This document shows, one piece after another, positions 3,450 through 28,151 of a stretch of 64,000 bases of DNA. Every line of letters begins with the position of its first letter. Positions within the stretch are counted from its first letter, which is position 1. Below the pieces are notes generated by a model. That model was not told the DNA's origin, did no database searches, and saw only the letters and a list, made by a program, of their open reading frames with translations. The DNA is from Alphaproteobacteria bacterium (lineage in GTDB: Bacteria; Pseudomonadota; Alphaproteobacteria; Bin95): assembly GCA_965205265.1 (NCBI GenBank), contig CBDBGH010000003.1, positions 5,280,001 through 5,344,000 on the forward strand. The letters are read 5' to 3'. A program made the translations under genes and the position numbers.

Positions 3450-3860
3450 TCACTGCGACGGGACCGGCCATATGGAGGGCCTGTAGTCGAAAAGTCCGGT
3501 GTCCGGAAGCAGGGAGATGGCGAACAGGAAAAGGCTGCCCGTCAACAGGCAGACGGCGGACATTGCCATCGCGGCGCCGCGGCGTTCGTGTTTCATGGAG
3601 CGGCGCAGGTAAAGGACGGCATAAATGACGGCAACCAGCAGGAAGACAGTGCCAATGGATGTGAGCATGAACGAAAAGGGGTTCGATAACGGAGTGATCC
3701 GGAACAGAAGATCGGAGGTATCGGGAACGTTGCCGTAGGGGGCGGCGGGCGTCCCGCCGAGGGGGATTGCGGCGGAGGCGGCAAGGACCGCCACGAGCCG
3801 GATGCCGCGACGACATGCCGGCCGGGTGGCGGGGCGGTCCTTGTCCGGGGGCCGGTGCAT
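3450..3860 (-). CDS. putative small membrane protein
   Basis: Two or three hydrophobic segments; start uncertain. Confidence 0.45.
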   Translation of the reverse strand: MHRPPDKDRPATRPACRRGIRLVAVLAASAAIPLGGTPAAPYGNVPDTSDLLFRITPLSNPFSFMLTSIGTVFLLVAVIYAVLYLRRSMKHERRGAAMAMSAVCLLTGSLFLFAISLLPDTGLFDYRPSIWPVPSQ

Positions 3861-4034
3861 ACAGGGATATGCCGGGATGTTCGCCCGGATGGCAAGGGAT
3901 GCCGACTATCGGGTCCCCGGGAATTCCCGTTGGCCGGGCGGTTTTATGGGGAAACCGGGGCGAAAGCGTACGCGGCTGGAATTCAAAGGCGATAATATCG
4001 CCGGGAGGTCACCTGGTACAGGAATGGAGCCGAC

Positions 4035-4373
4035 ATGCAGGTCAACATGGAAATAGCCGAAGCGCGGGAAGGAGAGGTCCTCATCGTTGCGCCGTCCGGA
4101 CGTCTCGACAGCGCATCGTCGCCGGTCCTTGAGGGCCGCCTGAAGCAGAAGATCGGAAGCGGCGAAGCCAGGGCCCTCCTGCTCGACCTGGCTGGCCTGG
4201 CCTATATGAGTTCGGCGGGCATGCGGGTGCTCATGCTTGCAGCGAGGTCGAGCAAGTCCGAAGGCGTAGCCTTTGCCCTCTGCGGCGTGCGGCCGGAGGT
4301 CAACCAGATCCTGGCCATGAGCGGAATGGACCGGCTCTACACCTTCTACGAGGGGCTTACAAAGGTAAGTTGA
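4035..4373 (+). pseudogene. STAS-domain anti-sigma factor antagonist, 3' end split by the tnpB element
   Basis: GRLD...LLDLAGLAYMSSAGMRVL STAS motif. The native C-terminus FYDDREAGVAGMA* resumes after the element at 5689-5730. Confidence 0.85.
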
Positions 4374-5688
4374 CATTGCCGTGTATCGTATCCAGTTCGG
4401 CCGCATGAGCGAGGTCTTCACGCACCGTCAGGTGGTATTCCGGCTTCTGCCGGGCCGCCGGTCCGTTTGGCGGCGTCTGGAGCGGGTTCTGGAGGCGCAG
4501 CGGCAGTTGTACAACGCCGCCCTTCAGGAACGCTGCGACGCCTGGCATCTGGCCGGGCGGTCGCTCTCCTATATCGACCAGGCGAAGAGCCTGACGGTGT
4601 GCCGCCGGGAGGACCCCGAGATGGCGGCCGTTCCGGTCGCCGTGCAGCGCGGGACGCTGAAGCGCCTGGACGAGGCGATGAAGGGCTTCTTCCGGCGGGT
4701 GAAGGCGGGCCAGAAGCCGGGTTTTCCCCGGTTCCGGTCCCGCCGGCGGTTCGACAGCCTCTCCTTCGTCTCGGGGGTGAGGCTGGAGGACCGGGCCCGG
4801 CCCGGCGCGGACTGCGGGTCCGGCGCGGCCTGCCTGCGCCTTCCGGGTTTCGGCCCGCTTGCGGTCCGCCAGCGGGGCGGCAACCCGCATGGGGATGGCG
4901 AGCCGGTCTCGGCGGTGCTGAAGCGCGAGGCCGGCAAGTGGTACGCCGTGGTCTGCTACCGGGTCCCGGCGCCGGCGGTCCACGAGGATGACGACAGCGT
5001 CATCGGGGTGGACATGAACGCTGGCCAGGTGGCGGCGAGCGGTCCGGGGCCGGAAGCCCGCCTGTTCCATGCCCCGGATACGCGGCGGCTGGAGGCGAGG
5101 GCGAAGCGCCTTGCCCGGCGTCTGGCGCGCCAGAAGCGCGGCTCCGGGCGCCGGGAGCGCACCCGCGCCCGTCTGGCGAAGACGAGGCGGCGCCTTTCCG
5201 GGATGCGGTGCGACTGGCGCCACCATGTCTCGCGGACAGTCGCCGACGCCGCCCATACCGTCGCCGTCGAGGACCTCCGGGTCCGGAACATGACGCGCAG
5301 CGCCCGGGGCACGACAGAGGAGCCGGGCGCCCGGGTCCGGCAGAAGGCCGGGCTCAACCGCGTCATCCTGGCCACGGGATGGGCGGAACTGCGCTTCATG
5401 TTCGGCTACAAGGCGGGACGGCTGCTCGCGGTCGACCCGGCCCATACCAGCCGGACCTGCGCCGCCTGCGGCCATGTCGATGCCGGCTCGCGGCGTTCGC
5501 GGGCCGAATTCCAGTGCACGGCCTGCGGCCATGCGGACCATGCCGACGCGAATGCCGGCAGCAACATCCGGCGTCGGGGACTGGCGCTGCTGCACGGGGA
5601 GGGGCGTTCCGGCTTGCGGACCCCTGCGATCCGTGAAAACGCAGGGATGCTGGCGGCATGACGCCGTCAACTCATCTTTGTAAGGCCC
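4352..5688 (+). mobile_element. non-autonomous tnpB element with TIRs and 8-bp TSD, copy 1 (1337 bp)
   Basis: Left end GGGGCTTACAAAGGTAAGTTGAC; right end reverse complement GGGCCTTACAAAGATGAGTTGAC (20/23 identical). TTCTACGA duplicated at 4344-4351 and 5689-5696. Confidence 0.92.
4381..5661 (+). CDS. tnpB: RNA-guided endonuclease TnpB
   Basis: N-terminal LYNAAL, GFPRF(R/K)S, RuvC-I IGVDMN, RuvC-II VAVEDL, Zn ribbon CAACG...CTACG, RuvC-III HADANA; D/E/D triad intact. Confidence 0.95.
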   Translation: MYRIQFGRMSEVFTHRQVVFRLLPGRRSVWRRLERVLEAQRQLYNAALQERCDAWHLAGRSLSYIDQAKSLTVCRREDPEMAAVPVAVQRGTLKRLDEAMKGFFRRVKAGQKPGFPRFRSRRRFDSLSFVSGVRLEDRARPGADCGSGAACLRLPGFGPLAVRQRGGNPHGDGEPVSAVLKREAGKWYAVVCYRVPAPAVHEDDDSVIGVDMNAGQVAASGPGPEARLFHAPDTRRLEARAKRLARRLARQKRGSGRRERTRARLAKTRRRLSGMRCDWRHHVSRTVADAAHTVAVEDLRVRNMTRSARGTTEEPGARVRQKAGLNRVILATGWAELRFMFGYKAGRLLAVDPAHTSRTCAACGHVDAGSRRSRAEFQCTACGHADHADANAGSNIRRRGLALLHGEGRSGLRTPAIRENAGMLAA

Positions 5689-5726
5689 TTCTACGATGAC
5701 CGTGAGGCTGGCGTGGCGGGTATGGC

Positions 5727-6389
5727 GTGATGCGGAAATTGAGCTTTCCCGAAGAAATCCTGCTGCTGATGCTTCATGACGAGGACGGCAGTTTTCTGCC
5801 GGTTCCGGAAATGTCGATGAGGTGCGCCCTGGCGGGCGCCGTGCTGATGGAACTGGCCCAGGCGGCCCGCATCGACACCGACACCGAGAAGTTCTTTCTC
5901 GTCAATACGGAGCCGACAGGCAACGGTCTCCTCGACACGACGCTGAAGCGCATAGCGGAAGCCGACGGGGACCGCAGCACGCGCTATTGGGTCGAGAGCG
6001 TCTCGAGCGAGGCTGACCGGATCCGCGAGGAAGCGCTTGCGGGTCTGGTCGACAAGGGCATCCTCAGCCGCGAGGAGGACCGTCTCCTGTGGGTATTCGG
6101 CTCGCGGCGCTATCCGATCATCGACGGCGATGCCGAAAGGGAGGTCAAGCTGCGGGTGCTCGGTGTGCTGCGGGATCCGGAAGAGATCCCGGATCCGCGC
6201 GACGCCGTCATTATCGGCCTCTGCAATTGCTGCGGGCTTTTCGCCGAAATGCTGTCGGCCCAGGAGTTGCACAGCCTGCAGGGCCGGATCAACGAGATCA
6301 GCGGCTACGACCTTATAGGCCAGGCCGTGGCGAAATCGATCCGCGACATCCAGGTCTCCCTTGACGCGGCCACCCACCCGTTTGCCTGA
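5727..6389 (+). CDS. GPP34/GOLPH3-Vps74 family protein
   Basis: EEILLLML...ALAGAVLMELA...RID...LVDKGIL...LLWVF.SRRYP pattern. Start overlaps the native STAS stop codon. Confidence 0.85.
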   Translation: MMRKLSFPEEILLLMLHDEDGSFLPVPEMSMRCALAGAVLMELAQAARIDTDTEKFFLVNTEPTGNGLLDTTLKRIAEADGDRSTRYWVESVSSEADRIREEALAGLVDKGILSREEDRLLWVFGSRRYPIIDGDAEREVKLRVLGVLRDPEEIPDPRDAVIIGLCNCCGLFAEMLSAQELHSLQGRINEISGYDLIGQAVAKSIRDIQVSLDAATHPFA

Positions 6390-24187: not shown

Positions 24188-24406
24188 ATGTCACGCGAAG
24201 ACGCCATCGCGTTCCTCGCCCGGGCCGAGGAAAGATACGGCCTGAAGGTCTTCGAGAATATCTGCGAGCGAACCGTCGGGCAACGCCCGCTCGGACGGCG
24301 CCTCCGGGTTGTGGGCGAGGCGATCATGGAACGGACCGACTATGAAGGATACCTCCTGGGCCGCAGGCTGGTCGCCGCCGCGGCCGAGGTGGACGGACAG
24401 TGCTGA
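24188..24406 (+). CDS. small protein, putative antitoxin partner
   Basis: AGGAGG RBS; overlaps the downstream nucleotidyltransferase gene. Confidence 0.6.
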   Translation: MSREDAIAFLARAEERYGLKVFENICERTVGQRPLGRRLRVVGEAIMERTDYEGYLLGRRLVAAAAEVDGQC

Positions 24407-25221
24407 CCGCGATCCAGTCCCGTGCCGCCCGGATCATGGCGGCAAACAGGTCGGAGGAGAGCTATTTCGCGGGCGGGGCGGTTCTCAACGAGCACACGGA
24501 ACGCGTGTCGGATGACCTGGATGTCTTTCATGACACCGAAGAGGCGATGGACGACATCTGCCGCAAGGACATGCAGGCACTGGAGGCCGCCGGCCTCGAC
24601 GTCATCGTCGTCATCGACGTCTGGGGCTGCATCGAGGCCAGGGTCCGTGACGAGGCTCGCAGGGAAACCGTCGTCCAGTGGATGCCCGAGAGCCGGATGC
24701 GTTTTTTCCCGCTGGTGGCCGATCCGCTCTGGGGCGTTCGGCTGCATCGTTCCGACCTGGCGGTCAACAAGGCCATCGCCGCATCGTCAAGGAGGAGGAC
24801 CCGCGACGCGGCGGACCTGGTCCTGATCTCGCGTCATTATTGCCCCTTGGGTCCGTTGTTCCTGGCCGCATCGCTCAAGCTGGACCTGTCTCCCATCGTG
24901 CTGGTGGACATGGCCCGGCAGAGAATGGCCGGGGCGTCCAACGAAGAACTCGGGGAACTCCGCACGGTGATTGGCGGCCAGAACGCCGGCGAGATCAAGA
25001 GCGCCGGATTTGCCGCACTGGATTCCGCGGAGACTTTCCTGCGCGGCCTCCCGGACCGCATGGTGGGTGGACTGCCTGTCAAGGCCGACGGCGCGCCAAC
25101 GGACAGGGTGGAGGACATGGCCTTTCTCCGGCCCGTCACGGACGGCGGCGGCCGCTTCCCGGACTTCCCGGAGACTCCGCCGGAATTCAGCGACGCGGGA
25201 GGCATGGGCGGCGGGCCGTAA
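24400..25221 (+). CDS. AbiEii-like nucleotidyltransferase
   Basis: YFAGGAVL...R.SDDLDVF (GG..DxD), NK..A...R...RD..DL motifs. Confidence 0.7.
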   Translation: MLTAIQSRAARIMAANRSEESYFAGGAVLNEHTERVSDDLDVFHDTEEAMDDICRKDMQALEAAGLDVIVVIDVWGCIEARVRDEARRETVVQWMPESRMRFFPLVADPLWGVRLHRSDLAVNKAIAASSRRRTRDAADLVLISRHYCPLGPLFLAASLKLDLSPIVLVDMARQRMAGASNEELGELRTVIGGQNAGEIKSAGFAALDSAETFLRGLPDRMVGGLPVKADGAPTDRVEDMAFLRPVTDGGGRFPDFPETPPEFSDAGGMGGGP

Positions 25222-25989: not shown

Positions 25990-26351
25990 GGGGCGTGTTC
26001 CTCCGGACACAGGGTTGGCGGCTGAAGTCTCCGGGAGAAGCCTAGTCCGGCGCACCGGGAAAGTGCAACTCCCGGACCTGAATTGCCGGAACGCCGAGGT
26101 GCGGGCGGACATGGTCATGCGGACCGGGAACATTCCGCCAGGACGCTGCCGGCGACGCTGAAACACCGGGAGAGCGGGAAGGCTCCTGATGGCCCGAGTA
26201 GCCCGAGTGAACTGCCGCTGCGACCGAACGCGCATCGCATGGTCCATTTTCGGCGCGCCCAGGTCGGTTAGTATTCCCTGTGGGCGCGGCCCGATCCACC
26301 CGAAAGACGGGCGCAGCGGAGCCGCCGCACAAACCCTGGGAGGAAAGGAAA

Positions 26352-27688
26352 GGGGCTTACAAAGGTAAGTTGACATTGCCGTGTATCGTATCCAGTTCGG
26401 CCGCATGAGCGAGGTCTTCACGCACCGTCAGGTGGTATTCCGGCTTCTGCCGGGCCGCCGGTCCGTTTGGCGGCGTCTGGAGCGGGTTCTGGAGGCGCAG
26501 CGGCAGTTGTACAACGCCGCCCTTCAGGAACGCTGCGACGCCTGGCGTCTGGCCGGGCGGTCGCTCTCCTATATCGACCAGGCGAAGAGCCTGACGGTGT
26601 GCCGCCGGGAGGACCCCGAGATGGCGGCCGTTCCGGTCGCCGTGCAGCGCGGGACGCTGAAGCGCCTGGACGAGGCGATGAAGGGCTTCTTCCGGCGGGT
26701 GAAGGCGGGCCAGAAGCCGGGTTTTCCCCGGTTCCGGTCCCGCCGGCGGTTCGACAGCCTCTCCTTCGTCTCGGGGGTGAGGCTGGAGGACCGGGCCCGG
26801 CCCGGCGCGGACTGCGGGTCCGGCGCGGCCTGCCTGCGCCTTCCGGGTTTCGGCCCGCTTGCGGTCCGCCGGCGGGGCGGCAACCCGCATGGGGATGGCG
26901 AGCCGGTCTCGGCGGTGCTGAAGCGCGAGGCCGGCAAGTGGTACGCCGTGGTCTGCTACCGGGTCCCGGCGCCGGCGGTCCACGAGGATGACGACAGCGT
27001 CATCGGGGTGGACATGAACGCTGGCCAGGTGGCGGCGAGCGGTCCGGGGCCGGAAGCCCGCCTGTTCCATGCCCCGGATACGCGGCGGCTGGAGGCGAGG
27101 GCGAAGCGCCTTGCCCGGCGTCTGGCGCGCCAGAAGCGCGGCTCCGGGCGCCGGGAGCGCACCCGCGCCCGTCTGGCGAAGACGAGGCGGCGCCTTTCCG
27201 GGATGCGGTGCGACTGGCGCCACCATGTCTCGCGGACAGTCGCCGACGCCGCCCATACCGTCGCCGTCGAGGACCTCCGGGTCCGGAACATGACGCGCAG
27301 CGCCCGGGGCACGACAGAGGAGCCGGGCGCCCGGGTCCGGCAGAAGGCCGGGCTCAACCGCGTCATCCTGGCCACGGGATGGGCGGAACTGCGCTTCATG
27401 TTCGGCTACAAGGCGGGACGGCTGCTCGCGGTCGACCCGGCCCATACCAGCCGGACCTGCGCCGCCTGCGGCCATGTCGATGCCGGCTCGCGGCGTTCGC
27501 GGGCCGAATTCCAGTGCACGGCCTGCGGCCATGCGGACCATGCCGACGCGAATGCCGGCAGCAACATCCGGCGTCGGGGACTGGCGCTGCTGCACGGGGA
27601 GGGGCGTTCCGGCTTGCGGACCCCTGCGATCCGTGAAAACGCAGGGATGCTGGCGGCATGACGCCGTCAACTCATCTTTGTAAGGCCC
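26352..27688 (+). mobile_element. non-autonomous tnpB element with TIRs and 8-bp TSD, copy 2
   Basis: Same ends as copy 1; AAAGGAAA duplicated at 26344-26351 and 27689-27696; two substitutions seen versus copy 1. Confidence 0.92.
26381..27661 (+). CDS. tnpB: RNA-guided endonuclease TnpB
   Basis: Identical to 4381..5661 except H->R and Q->R; catalytic triad intact. Confidence 0.95.
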   Translation: MYRIQFGRMSEVFTHRQVVFRLLPGRRSVWRRLERVLEAQRQLYNAALQERCDAWRLAGRSLSYIDQAKSLTVCRREDPEMAAVPVAVQRGTLKRLDEAMKGFFRRVKAGQKPGFPRFRSRRRFDSLSFVSGVRLEDRARPGADCGSGAACLRLPGFGPLAVRRRGGNPHGDGEPVSAVLKREAGKWYAVVCYRVPAPAVHEDDDSVIGVDMNAGQVAASGPGPEARLFHAPDTRRLEARAKRLARRLARQKRGSGRRERTRARLAKTRRRLSGMRCDWRHHVSRTVADAAHTVAVEDLRVRNMTRSARGTTEEPGARVRQKAGLNRVILATGWAELRFMFGYKAGRLLAVDPAHTSRTCAACGHVDAGSRRSRAEFQCTACGHADHADANAGSNIRRRGLALLHGEGRSGLRTPAIRENAGMLAA

Positions 27689-27701
27689 AAAGGAAACCAT
27701 C

Positions 27702-28151
27702 ATGCGCAAGGGATACACGGTCCTTCTGGCGGCATGCCTCGCAATCGCCGCGCTGCAGGGGTGCACGCATTCAACCGGGTCGCCGGAGAAACGGTTGGAA
27801 GGGGTCGTAAAGACCCAGCCTGAAACCGAGTCGTCCGACAAGCAGTGCAGGACGCAATTCAGGCTGGTCGACACGCACGCCGACGCCCGGGACTACAGGA
27901 GGGCGCTCACCAAGGTCCAGGAAATCGACTGCCCGGTGTGGAAGGACAAGGGTTATCGGTCAATTGCCAGGTCGCTCCGGCGCTATGCCACCGAAGCACG
28001 GAAGGAGCAGCAATTCGCGGCAGCCCGGGATCTTCTTGAGAAGGCGAGGCGCGTAGCGGAGCATATCAGGGATCCCGAGATGCAACTTTCCGTGTTCCGA
28101 GCCATCGAGAGGGCTGCGGAACTGGTGGAAAGGGATATGCGGCGGTCGTAG
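27702..28151 (+). CDS. putative lipoprotein
   Basis: Signal peptide with lipobox-like LQGC. Its RBS is the TSD of the tnpB element. Confidence 0.7.
   Translation: MRKGYTVLLAACLAIAALQGCTHSTGSPEKRLEGVVKTQPETESSDKQCRTQFRLVDTHADARDYRRALTKVQEIDCPVWKDKGYRSIARSLRRYATEARKEQQFAAARDLLEKARRVAEHIRDPEMQLSVFRAIERAAELVERDMRRS

Follow-up and report, generated by a model that had tools for sequence, protein, structure and literature searches.

A 1337-bp unit built around a tnpB gene, present twice in the stretch of DNA analysed here, is most probably a non-autonomous transposon of the IS1595 family. Its terminal inverted repeats (TIRs) enclose only tnpB together with a probable guide-RNA scaffold at the 3' side, and it is probably moved in trans; we put the probability of this reading at about 85%. 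The stretch, in the following called the window, comprises 64,000 nt of an Alphaproteobacteria bacterium (assembly GCA_965205265.1, contig CBDBGH010000003.1, positions 5,280,001-5,344,000 of the forward strand). Coordinates with the prefix C3 refer to the 5.46-Mb chromosome of the window's own genome (G000). An earlier note on this DNA, made from its letters alone, had proposed a recently active tnpB transposon mobilised in trans by a DDE transposase. The copies, the target-site duplications (TSDs) and the TIRs of an IS1595 element in the same genome lend this proposal support at the level of sequence.

Copies, ends and target duplications

The two window copies (4352-5688 and 26352-27688) are each 1337 bp long, and the two single-nucleotide differences that had been reported lie at element positions 196 and 520. 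Each starts with GGGGCTTACAAAGGTAAGTTGAC and ends, in inverted orientation, with GGGCCTTACAAAGATGAGTTGAC. These ends agree at 20 of 23 positions and are thus the imperfect 23-bp TIRs of the earlier description. Likewise as described, the flanking 8-mers are perfect repeats that differ between the insertions, being TTCTACGA/TTCTACGA for copy 1 and AAAGGAAA/AAAGGAAA for copy 2. Searching the genome with the left TIR gave 16 matches with at most 3 mismatches and 50 with at most 5, and the reversed pattern, which served as control, gave 0 and 0. Because the reversed pattern finds no match in the genome, the TIR is not a chance match.

The chromosome holds seven full copies, which are 99.85-100% identical, and an eighth, truncated one that breaks off after 518 bp, in line with the prediction that further copies would be found. 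At six of the seven full copies a perfect 8-bp TSD is present, a different one each time. Between the truncated copy (C3:4849554-4850072) and the one full copy without a TSD (C3:4855744-4857080, locus L156) there is a distance of 5.7 kb; a rearrangement between the two is possible, though their flanks show no simple match. Among the full copies there are two variable sites, both non-synonymous. Copy 1 has both changes, R56H and R164Q. Arginine is the residue of 35 of 40 homologues at the first of these positions and of 38 of 40 at the second, and copy 1 is by this comparison a derived copy. Seven of the eight copies are clustered in 609 kb (C3:4.697-5.306 Mb, the window included) of the 5.46-Mb chromosome. 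This clustering and the flanks found only in this strain point to local hopping or to a strain-specific region. In total, at least seven very recent insertions took place, each of which duplicated 8 bp of an A/T-rich target. The open reading frame (ORF) leaves margins of just 29 bp before and 27 bp after it, with neither the interior of a miniature inverted-repeat transposable element (MITE) nor IS605-type ends.

The TnpB protein

TnpB is the ancestor of Cas12, and its known job is to restore IS605 and IS607 elements after scarless excision. The sole long sense ORF of the element encodes a TnpB of 426 amino acids, and the element contains no other gene and no DDE transposase with a zinc ribbon. 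Pfam assigns OrfB_IS605 and Cas12f1-like_TNB to the protein. The NCBIfam model guided_TnpB is matched with 181.8 bits (cut-off 100); the scores for IS200_TnpB (120.8 versus 425) and IS607_TnpB (79 versus 350) stay below the cut-offs of these models. Residues 15-402 align with ISDra2 TnpB (8h1j/8exa, E ~1e-24), such that D211, E297 and D389 fall on its catalytic positions. The earlier statement that nothing but a catalytically intact TnpB is encoded has thereby held.

Conservation of the catalytic and zinc-finger residues was scored across 40 TnpB relatives: D211, E297 and the four zinc-finger cysteines are invariant and D389 is conserved in at least 90%. The protein has the architecture of TnpB/OMEGA nucleases, i.e. 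a RuvC D-E-D triad and a C4 zinc finger. Its ORF is intact in all seven full copies as well as in most relatives. A protein database contained 1053 proteins at E <=1e-40; the best 120 of these 1053 are at least 49% identical and are named, if at all, only 'transposase'.

Terminal repeat family and candidate helper transposase

The TIRs belong to a resident family. A census of the genome, in which only two-ended elements were counted (n = 25), found perfect 8-bp TSDs at 20 of them. The family is made up of the seven tnpB copies, MITEs of 192-248 bp, one MITE of 586 bp, one of 2780 bp and a 2840-bp element with a transposase gene; about 18 MITEs are bounded by ends of this kind.

The 2840-bp element (C3:1919671-1922510; L001:1672-4511) has perfect 23-bp TIRs and the TSD TCATGTTT. 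Compared with the two ends of the tnpB element, its TIR agrees at 19 and 20 of 23 positions; beyond base 23 the likeness ceases. The transposase of 332 amino acids (C3:1921463-1922458) matches Pfam DDE_Tnp_IS1595 (PF12762, 1.3e-41) and Zn_ribbon_IS1595, and it reaches 204.7 bits with NCBIfam transpos_IS1595 (NF033547, cut-off 75). We found no transposase gene other than an IS1595-type one enclosed by TIRs of this family in the genome. Six more IS1595-type transposase genes are ~54-58% identical to the 332-residue one, and at least the paralogue present in four copies has a different left end. Judged by its ends, the 2840-bp element is the best candidate helper. A DDE insertion sequence with the same TIR had been predicted, IS1595 being rightly among the families guessed. 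An IS1595 transposase element with an 8-bp TSD of its own does exist, but its ends are similar and not identical.

The 2840-bp element also holds passenger ORFs, among them one for a putative lipoprotein of 277 amino acids that matches the TbpB beta-barrel weakly (E 2.6e-4, below cut-off). The MITEs of 192-248 bp (C3:42319-42552, 980248-980495, 1205672-1205919 and ~15 more) have IS1595-type TIRs and a long internal palindrome. They were considered as stand-alone guide RNAs and rejected, being without the conserved scaffold block described below and having their own long palindrome instead. One 8-mer, AAACATGA/TCATGTTT, is the target of 7 of the 14 perfect-TSD elements of the TIR family other than the tnpB copies. 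These include the 2840-bp transposase element and the 2780-bp MITE (C3:2143223-2146002, L155), in which an IS66-type element with three ORFs is nested and which is surrounded as a whole by the TSD AAACATGA. The 8-mer AAACATGA sits in a recurring catgac-rich motif and is used by MITEs in both orientations, which hints at a strong target preference or at a repetitive sequence of the host.

Insertion sites and empty sites

Deleting copy 1 plus one TSD in silico gives a STAS protein of 116 amino acids that ends with FYDDREAGVAGMA; copy 1 thus splits a STAS gene whose native end resumes after the TSD, just as had been claimed. The last 13 residues of the restored end align end-to-end with the VHDDRAAALAAMG-type ends of eight homologues in the genus. 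Copy 2 is placed between a purine-rich stretch, plausibly a Shine-Dalgarno sequence, and an ATG that follows 5 nt from the TSD. A further copy (C3:4697103) disrupts a large serine-recombinase gene (Resolvase, Recombinase and Zn_ribbon_recom domains), of which two intact paralogues exist in the genome (C3:3440418-3442539 and C3:3558352-3560426; with 93% and 91% identity along 2.1 kb). At the position of the insertion, the two paralogues (C3:3441028 and C3:3558941) read ...gggggatgTTCGAGGTcgtggtc..., with a single 8-mer and without TIR. Since the STAS end is restored and the recombinase paralogues show empty sites, the boundaries of the element are settled. Empty sites, a check proposed in the earlier note for the STAS gene, were thus found within the genome at the paralogues of the recombinase gene, but not as orthologous alleles in congeners. 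The three-copy serine-recombinase gene has a weaker match also at C1:57524-58021, and the serine-recombinase genes probably mark other mobile elements.

For the flanks of the window copies a DNA homologue was found in none of 16 congeners, and the region around these copies seems to be strain-specific. One loose contig end suggested a further left junction; it was discarded, as its 12-mer is missing from the assembly and the agreement reached only 0.67. The 18 nt on the right flank are unique in the genome (at <=2 mismatches) for five of the seven copies. The flank of the copy in the recombinase gene recurs exactly in both paralogues of that gene, and the remaining flank is matched once, with 2 mismatches.

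We aligned the 16 insertions with perfect TSDs from this genome and its relatives in tnpB orientation. In 12 of the 16 a G directly precedes the TSD, A or T occupies TSD position 1 in 14 and position 2 in all 16, and the far side of the TSD is not a mirror image. Such an oriented bias for G before A/T could be a transposon-adjacent motif (TAM) or an effect of the transposase.

Relatives and phylogeny

Relatives of the element are found well beyond this genome. In the congener G015, TnpBs of 75-77% and ~60% identity lie in elements of 1317-1351 bp with related TIRs (GGGGCTTACACAGAAAGGTTGAC), two of which have perfect TSDs. A class-wide draw of 401 genomes contained a close relative only in G413, from a second family of the class (57% identity), again with such TIRs. 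Within the genus of G413, members of the clade occur in 7 of 12 genomes (G413 and six further); both TIRs were present at 10 of 20 loci, and perfect TSDs at 4 of these. In metagenomes, TIR-bounded elements with TnpB only were seen at 36-71% identity (L062-L070, L074, L086) and down to 32% (L128). Altogether, both ends were identified for 29 tnpB elements, and at 16 of these the 8-bp TSD is perfect. The IS1595 transposase elements of G015 and G413 have 8-bp TSDs, too, and GGGG(A/C)TTAYA...TTGAC ends.

A quick maximum-likelihood tree (IQ-TREE) was built from 82 TnpBs, 11 of 93 having been left out because they were incomplete or had an unusual length. The 16 TIR-bearing TnpBs all fall on one side of a branch with an SH-aLRT support of 99.6 and the 66 others on the other side, so that the phylogeny proposed beforehand does place the TIR-bearing relatives in one clade. 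Several of the 66 TnpBs outside it show IS605-like 3' hairpins. The TIR-to-TIR arrangement is ancestral to the whole clade.

A plasmid collection contained no TnpB above 60% identity and no DNA match spanning 80% of the element. A scan of genome contigs returned only two distant Streptomyces TnpBs (34-37% identity), and on viral contigs the TIR motif stood on both sides at 0 of 74 loci. One TIR scan covered 17 loci, including L032 (G263), a locus without TIR. At L076:1578-3704, from a metagenome, a TnpB of 37% identity is directly adjoined, in divergent orientation, by an IS1595-type transposase fragment (270-residue ORF), with an overlap of 12 nt at the TnpB start. This locus was dismissed as a case of a cis transposase, since no TIRs were found and its TnpB lies outside the TIR clade.

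Putative omega-RNA

In 12 of 14 elements the stop codon of tnpB lies 7-41 nt from the right end, the exceptions being G015c, which is decayed, and L086, where the frame runs to the end. As the gene fills the element and stops in or next to the right TIR, any guide-RNA scaffold must overlap the coding sequence. Where two proteins share the same residue, their codons are identical at a rate of 0.82-0.86 at amino acids 391-429 as compared to ~0.63 elsewhere. An alignment of the last 240 nt of 13 elements contains an almost invariant block composed of GGCGTCGGGGACTGGCGC..CTGCACGGGGAGG, a variable hairpin and CC..GA.CCGTGAAA. For this block, which lies partly in the C-terminal tail past the ISDra2-aligned region, RNAalifold predicted 22 base pairs, and compensatory changes occur at 3 of these.

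Downstream of CCGTGAA, a segment of 16 nt pairs with the inner portion of the right TIR of the same element. In a swap test, in which the own right TIR was compared with TIRs that differ at >=5 of 15 positions, the stem with the own TIR was the best one in 13 of 16 elements, with a mean of -7.8 versus -4.0 kcal/mol. No matching segment was seen by eye in the first 50 nt of the left end. Synonymous constraint, conserved stems and the covarying TIR stem suggest an omega-RNA scaffold that would abut the flank, and the last stem of this putative RNA seems to incorporate the right TIR. If the RNA runs into the flank, its guide begins with the TSD.

The coordinates of the features are collected in Table 1. 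Among the neighbouring genes, a GPP34-family protein (E 7.6e-44) is encoded directly downstream of copy 1 (window 5727-6389), and a weak AbiEii-like ORF (E 6.9e-4, below cut-off) lies upstream of copy 2 (window 24400-25221).

Table 1. Features of the two tnpB elements and their insertion sites, in window coordinates
Feature	Position	Strand	Remarks
5' part of split STAS-domain gene	4035..4351	+	Pfam STAS 1.6e-18
Left TSD of copy 1 (TTCTACGA)	4344..4351	.	same as 5689-5696; deleting one copy restores the STAS frame
Left 23-bp TIR, copy 1	4352..4374	+	20/23 versus right TIR; 19/23 versus TIR of IS1595 transposase element
tnpB, TnpB-family RNA-guided endonuclease, 426 aa	4381..5661	+	R56H, R164Q; Pfam, NCBIfam, ISDra2 alignment
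Putative omega-RNA scaffold (minimal conserved part)	5570..5688	+	spans last ~30 tnpB codons and right TIR
Right 23-bp TIR, copy 1	5666..5688	-	20/23 versus TIR of IS1595 transposase element; tnpB stop 4 nt before
Right TSD of copy 1 (TTCTACGA)	5689..5696	.	also first bases of presumed guide; 18-mer flank unmatched elsewhere in genome
3' remnant of STAS gene (..FYDDREAGVAGMA, stop)	5689..5730	+	in-silico empty site
Left TSD of copy 2 (AAAGGAAA)	26344..26351	.	direct repeat
Copy 2	26352..27688	+	TIR 26352-26374, tnpB 26381-27661 (consensus Arg at 56, 164), TIR 27666-27688
Right TSD of copy 2 (AAAGGAAA)	27689..27696	.	5 nt upstream of ATG of 149-aa ORF (27702-28151)

Proposed mechanism and its weighing

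With respect to the definition of the IS1595 family, the element has TIRs like those of a transposase-encoding member and an 8-bp TSD, and it is without a DDE transposase of its own. Because it holds only tnpB, it is a derivative and not an autonomous IS1595 member. In the mechanism that we propose, the IS1595 transposase of the 2840-bp element, or a paralogue of it, would move the tnpB element in trans. With less certainty, an omega-RNA would be transcribed from at least the last ~120 nt, with the right TIR as its final stem, and would continue into the flank. The TSD and the bases beyond it might then serve as guide, and TnpB may cut copies of the site that are free of the element, such that the element is retained or copied by homologous repair; of these two steps we are likewise less sure. 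Homing-type retention by cutting of empty sites has been shown for IS605-type TnpB.

A number of observations weigh against this reading. Concerning the duplications, the full copy C3:4855744 has no TSD (AACACGTT / AATGCGTA), and 13 of the 29 two-ended tnpB elements are without a perfect TSD. The match of the tnpB ends to the candidate helper, 19-20 of 23 positions, falls short of identity. It is lower in the relatives, where the best transposase elements found agree with the local tnpB TIRs at 18 of 23 positions in G413 and at 15-16 of 23 in G015. No cis transposase was found within elements of the TIR clade; among 117 loci only the fragment at L076, outside this clade, turned up, and in a set of 20 there was none. 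The family assignment is therefore indirect, via the ends. Searches for orthologous empty alleles returned the own genome as sole match with the flanks of copy 1 (21 genomes) and of copy 2 (17 genomes), and contigs from four sequencing runs over 3700-6300 contained no joint across the element. The 16 insertions show no clear TAM upstream of their TSDs.

The RNA part of the reading faces objections of its own. Of seven sequencing runs listed none is marked as RNA, Rfam had no family near its gathering score in 4000-6100, of six single-sequence folds only one stands out, RNAalifold predicts no pairs when given the last 70 nt alone, and the covariation counts are inflated, since the compared sequences are related. 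Finally, a benefit from homing is not obvious, as a cut-and-paste transposon breaks its donor site anyway (PMC13565253).

This last objection leads to the alternative that we take most seriously, though we consider it unlikely: the element is moved by IS1595, and its TnpB is of no use to the transposon. The nuclease would then be a passive hitch-hiker or have been re-purposed, either as selfish cargo that keeps itself or with a guide not taken from the flank, directed for example at competing elements or at TIRs. If DDE excision already leaves a double-strand break, restorative homing adds little (PMC13565253). The variable TSDs have no consistent TAM beside them, a TIR-directed guide is conceivable given that the last stem of the putative RNA holds TIR sequence, and IS1595-type ends in this genome also bear unrelated cargo and MITEs. 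Against useless cargo speaks that the association is old and monophyletic and that the ORF is intact in all seven copies and most relatives, with its catalytic residues conserved. In every member the ORF fills the space from TIR to TIR and has its 3' end at the right one, which is the geometry needed for flank-derived guides, and such geometry is interpreted likewise in the parts of Altae-Tran et al. at hand (PMC10691335). Moreover, a site bias that follows the TnpB orientation (G at position -1 in 12 of 16) would not be imposed by passive cargo.

The two remaining alternatives concern the origin and the mobilisation of the unit. An IS200/IS605-type, IS1341-like tnpB might have landed in an IS1595 MITE once and now move by accident. 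MITEs with related TIRs are indeed abundant here, and one of them holds a nested IS66; the 29 and 27 bp that border the ORF are, however, neither a MITE interior nor IS605-type ends. The same compact TIR-to-TIR layout recurs in other genera and in metagenomes with TnpBs down to 32-41% identity, and the TIR-bearing TnpBs form one clade, so that such a single accident is the least probable of the explanations, with hardly any weight left. Nearly as improbable is mobilisation by another DDE family that makes 8-bp TSDs (ISL3, IS256, IS6, IS66 or hAT-like), the likeness to IS1595 being coincidental. An 8-bp TSD is not confined to IS1595, and the match to the transposase-bearing element is imperfect. 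Yet the only transposase gene found between such TIRs in the genome is of the IS1595 type, the GGGG(A/C)TTAYA...TTGAC termini and the 8-bp TSD are found at the IS1595 elements of G015 and G413 as well, and the reversed-pattern control had no matches.

A broader statement than that of a trans-mobilised IS1595 derivative is tentative, and we would sooner bet against it than on it. A monophyletic lineage of intact TnpBs may have left the HUH and serine-recombinase transposons and now occur only as transposase-less cargo of IS1595-type (Merlin-like) transposons. The right TIR would be the last stem of its guide RNA, the G-before-A/T bias possibly a TAM, and the lineage a bacterial and archaeal counterpart of Fanzor1.

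How a nuclease helps a DDE transposon that leaves a donor break and has a variable TSD is a puzzle raised in a 2026 review (PMC13565253). The present genome is a compact test case of recent activity for it, with seven near-identical copies, a candidate transposase, empty sites within the same cell and relatives for RNA comparison. On the broader statement, the lineage would also be a natural system for studying what use a cut-and-paste transposon whose 8-bp TSD varies makes of an RNA-guided homing nuclease. The small size (~1.27-1.4 kb for nuclease and putative RNA) is also of interest for genome editing.

Comparison with known systems

IS1595 MITEs are known, as are groups within the family in ISfinder such as ISNwi1+ and ISPna2+. 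Siguier et al. in 2009 reportedly described IS1595-family insertion sequences with passenger genes ('transporter IS') as well as derivatives without transposase. The tnpB element resembles these in its GGGG-type TIRs (~20-30 bp), 8-bp TSDs, cargo genes and transposase-less state. It differs in its cargo, namely an RNA-guided nuclease together with its probable scaffold on the right TIR, and in that the cargo lineage has been kept to these ends through deep divergence.

IS200/IS605 and IS607 elements are marked by subterminal hairpins or GG ends and by a target motif at the left end. They have no TIRs, make no TSDs and insert beside a fixed motif of 4-5 nt, the TAM (PMC13565253). In contrast to these, including the IS1341 group, the element described here has 23-bp TIRs and variable 8-bp TSDs and is without the hallmarks of either family. 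With the IS1341 group it shares a TnpB with WED, REC, RuvC and zinc-finger parts and non-autonomy; an RNA that overlaps the 3' end of the gene would be a further common trait.

The closest precedent is the work of Altae-Tran et al. (2023, PNAS; PMC10691335). Its parts at hand describe six DDE-associated TnpB branches (DDE-1 to DDE-6), each of which has inverted terminal repeats. Solo TnpBs are described there as well; their ends hardly differ from the ends of systems that carry a transposase, and mobilisation in trans was proposed for them. As there, TnpB stands between inverted repeats with its 3' end near the end of the transposon, solo copies appear to be moved in trans, and similar ends are common to the tnpB copies and a transposase-bearing element. 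As far as those parts go, the published branches were defined by a transposase in cis, whereas the TIR clade has none in the examined loci. The DDE families named are only IS630 in the available main text of PMC10691335 and ISL2, IS630 and IS1031 in PMC13565253. IS1595 is mentioned neither in that available text nor in the review, though figure 4 or the supplements of PMC10691335 may hold the clade. Similarly, our literature search found no paper that links TnpB to IS1595, and these supplements may contain such a case. The novelty implied in the earlier note was accordingly overstated: DDE-associated and solo TnpBs with inverted ends are already in the accessible part of PMC10691335. The general phenomenon is thus published, and IS1595 ends are known to bear assorted cargo. 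New, as far as checked, are the partner family, a whole clade without cis transposase, the covarying TIR stem and the oriented target bias.

In eukaryotes, Fanzor1 and Fanzor2* are cargo of cut-and-paste transposons with TIRs and TSDs, often without transposase, according to the sections consulted of PMC3627910 and PMC10711439. In the latter, Yoon et al. (2023) predicted the TIR to be part of the Fanzor guide-RNA scaffold. The portions of Bao and Jurka (2013; PMC3627910) at hand mention neither Merlin nor IS1595 among the Fanzor hosts. The tnpB element differs from Fanzor in being prokaryotic, in its compact protein and in its IS1595 partner. We claim no shared descent of the two; the likeness would be one in their workings, and in this sense the parallel to Fanzor that had been drawn from the window alone is apt.

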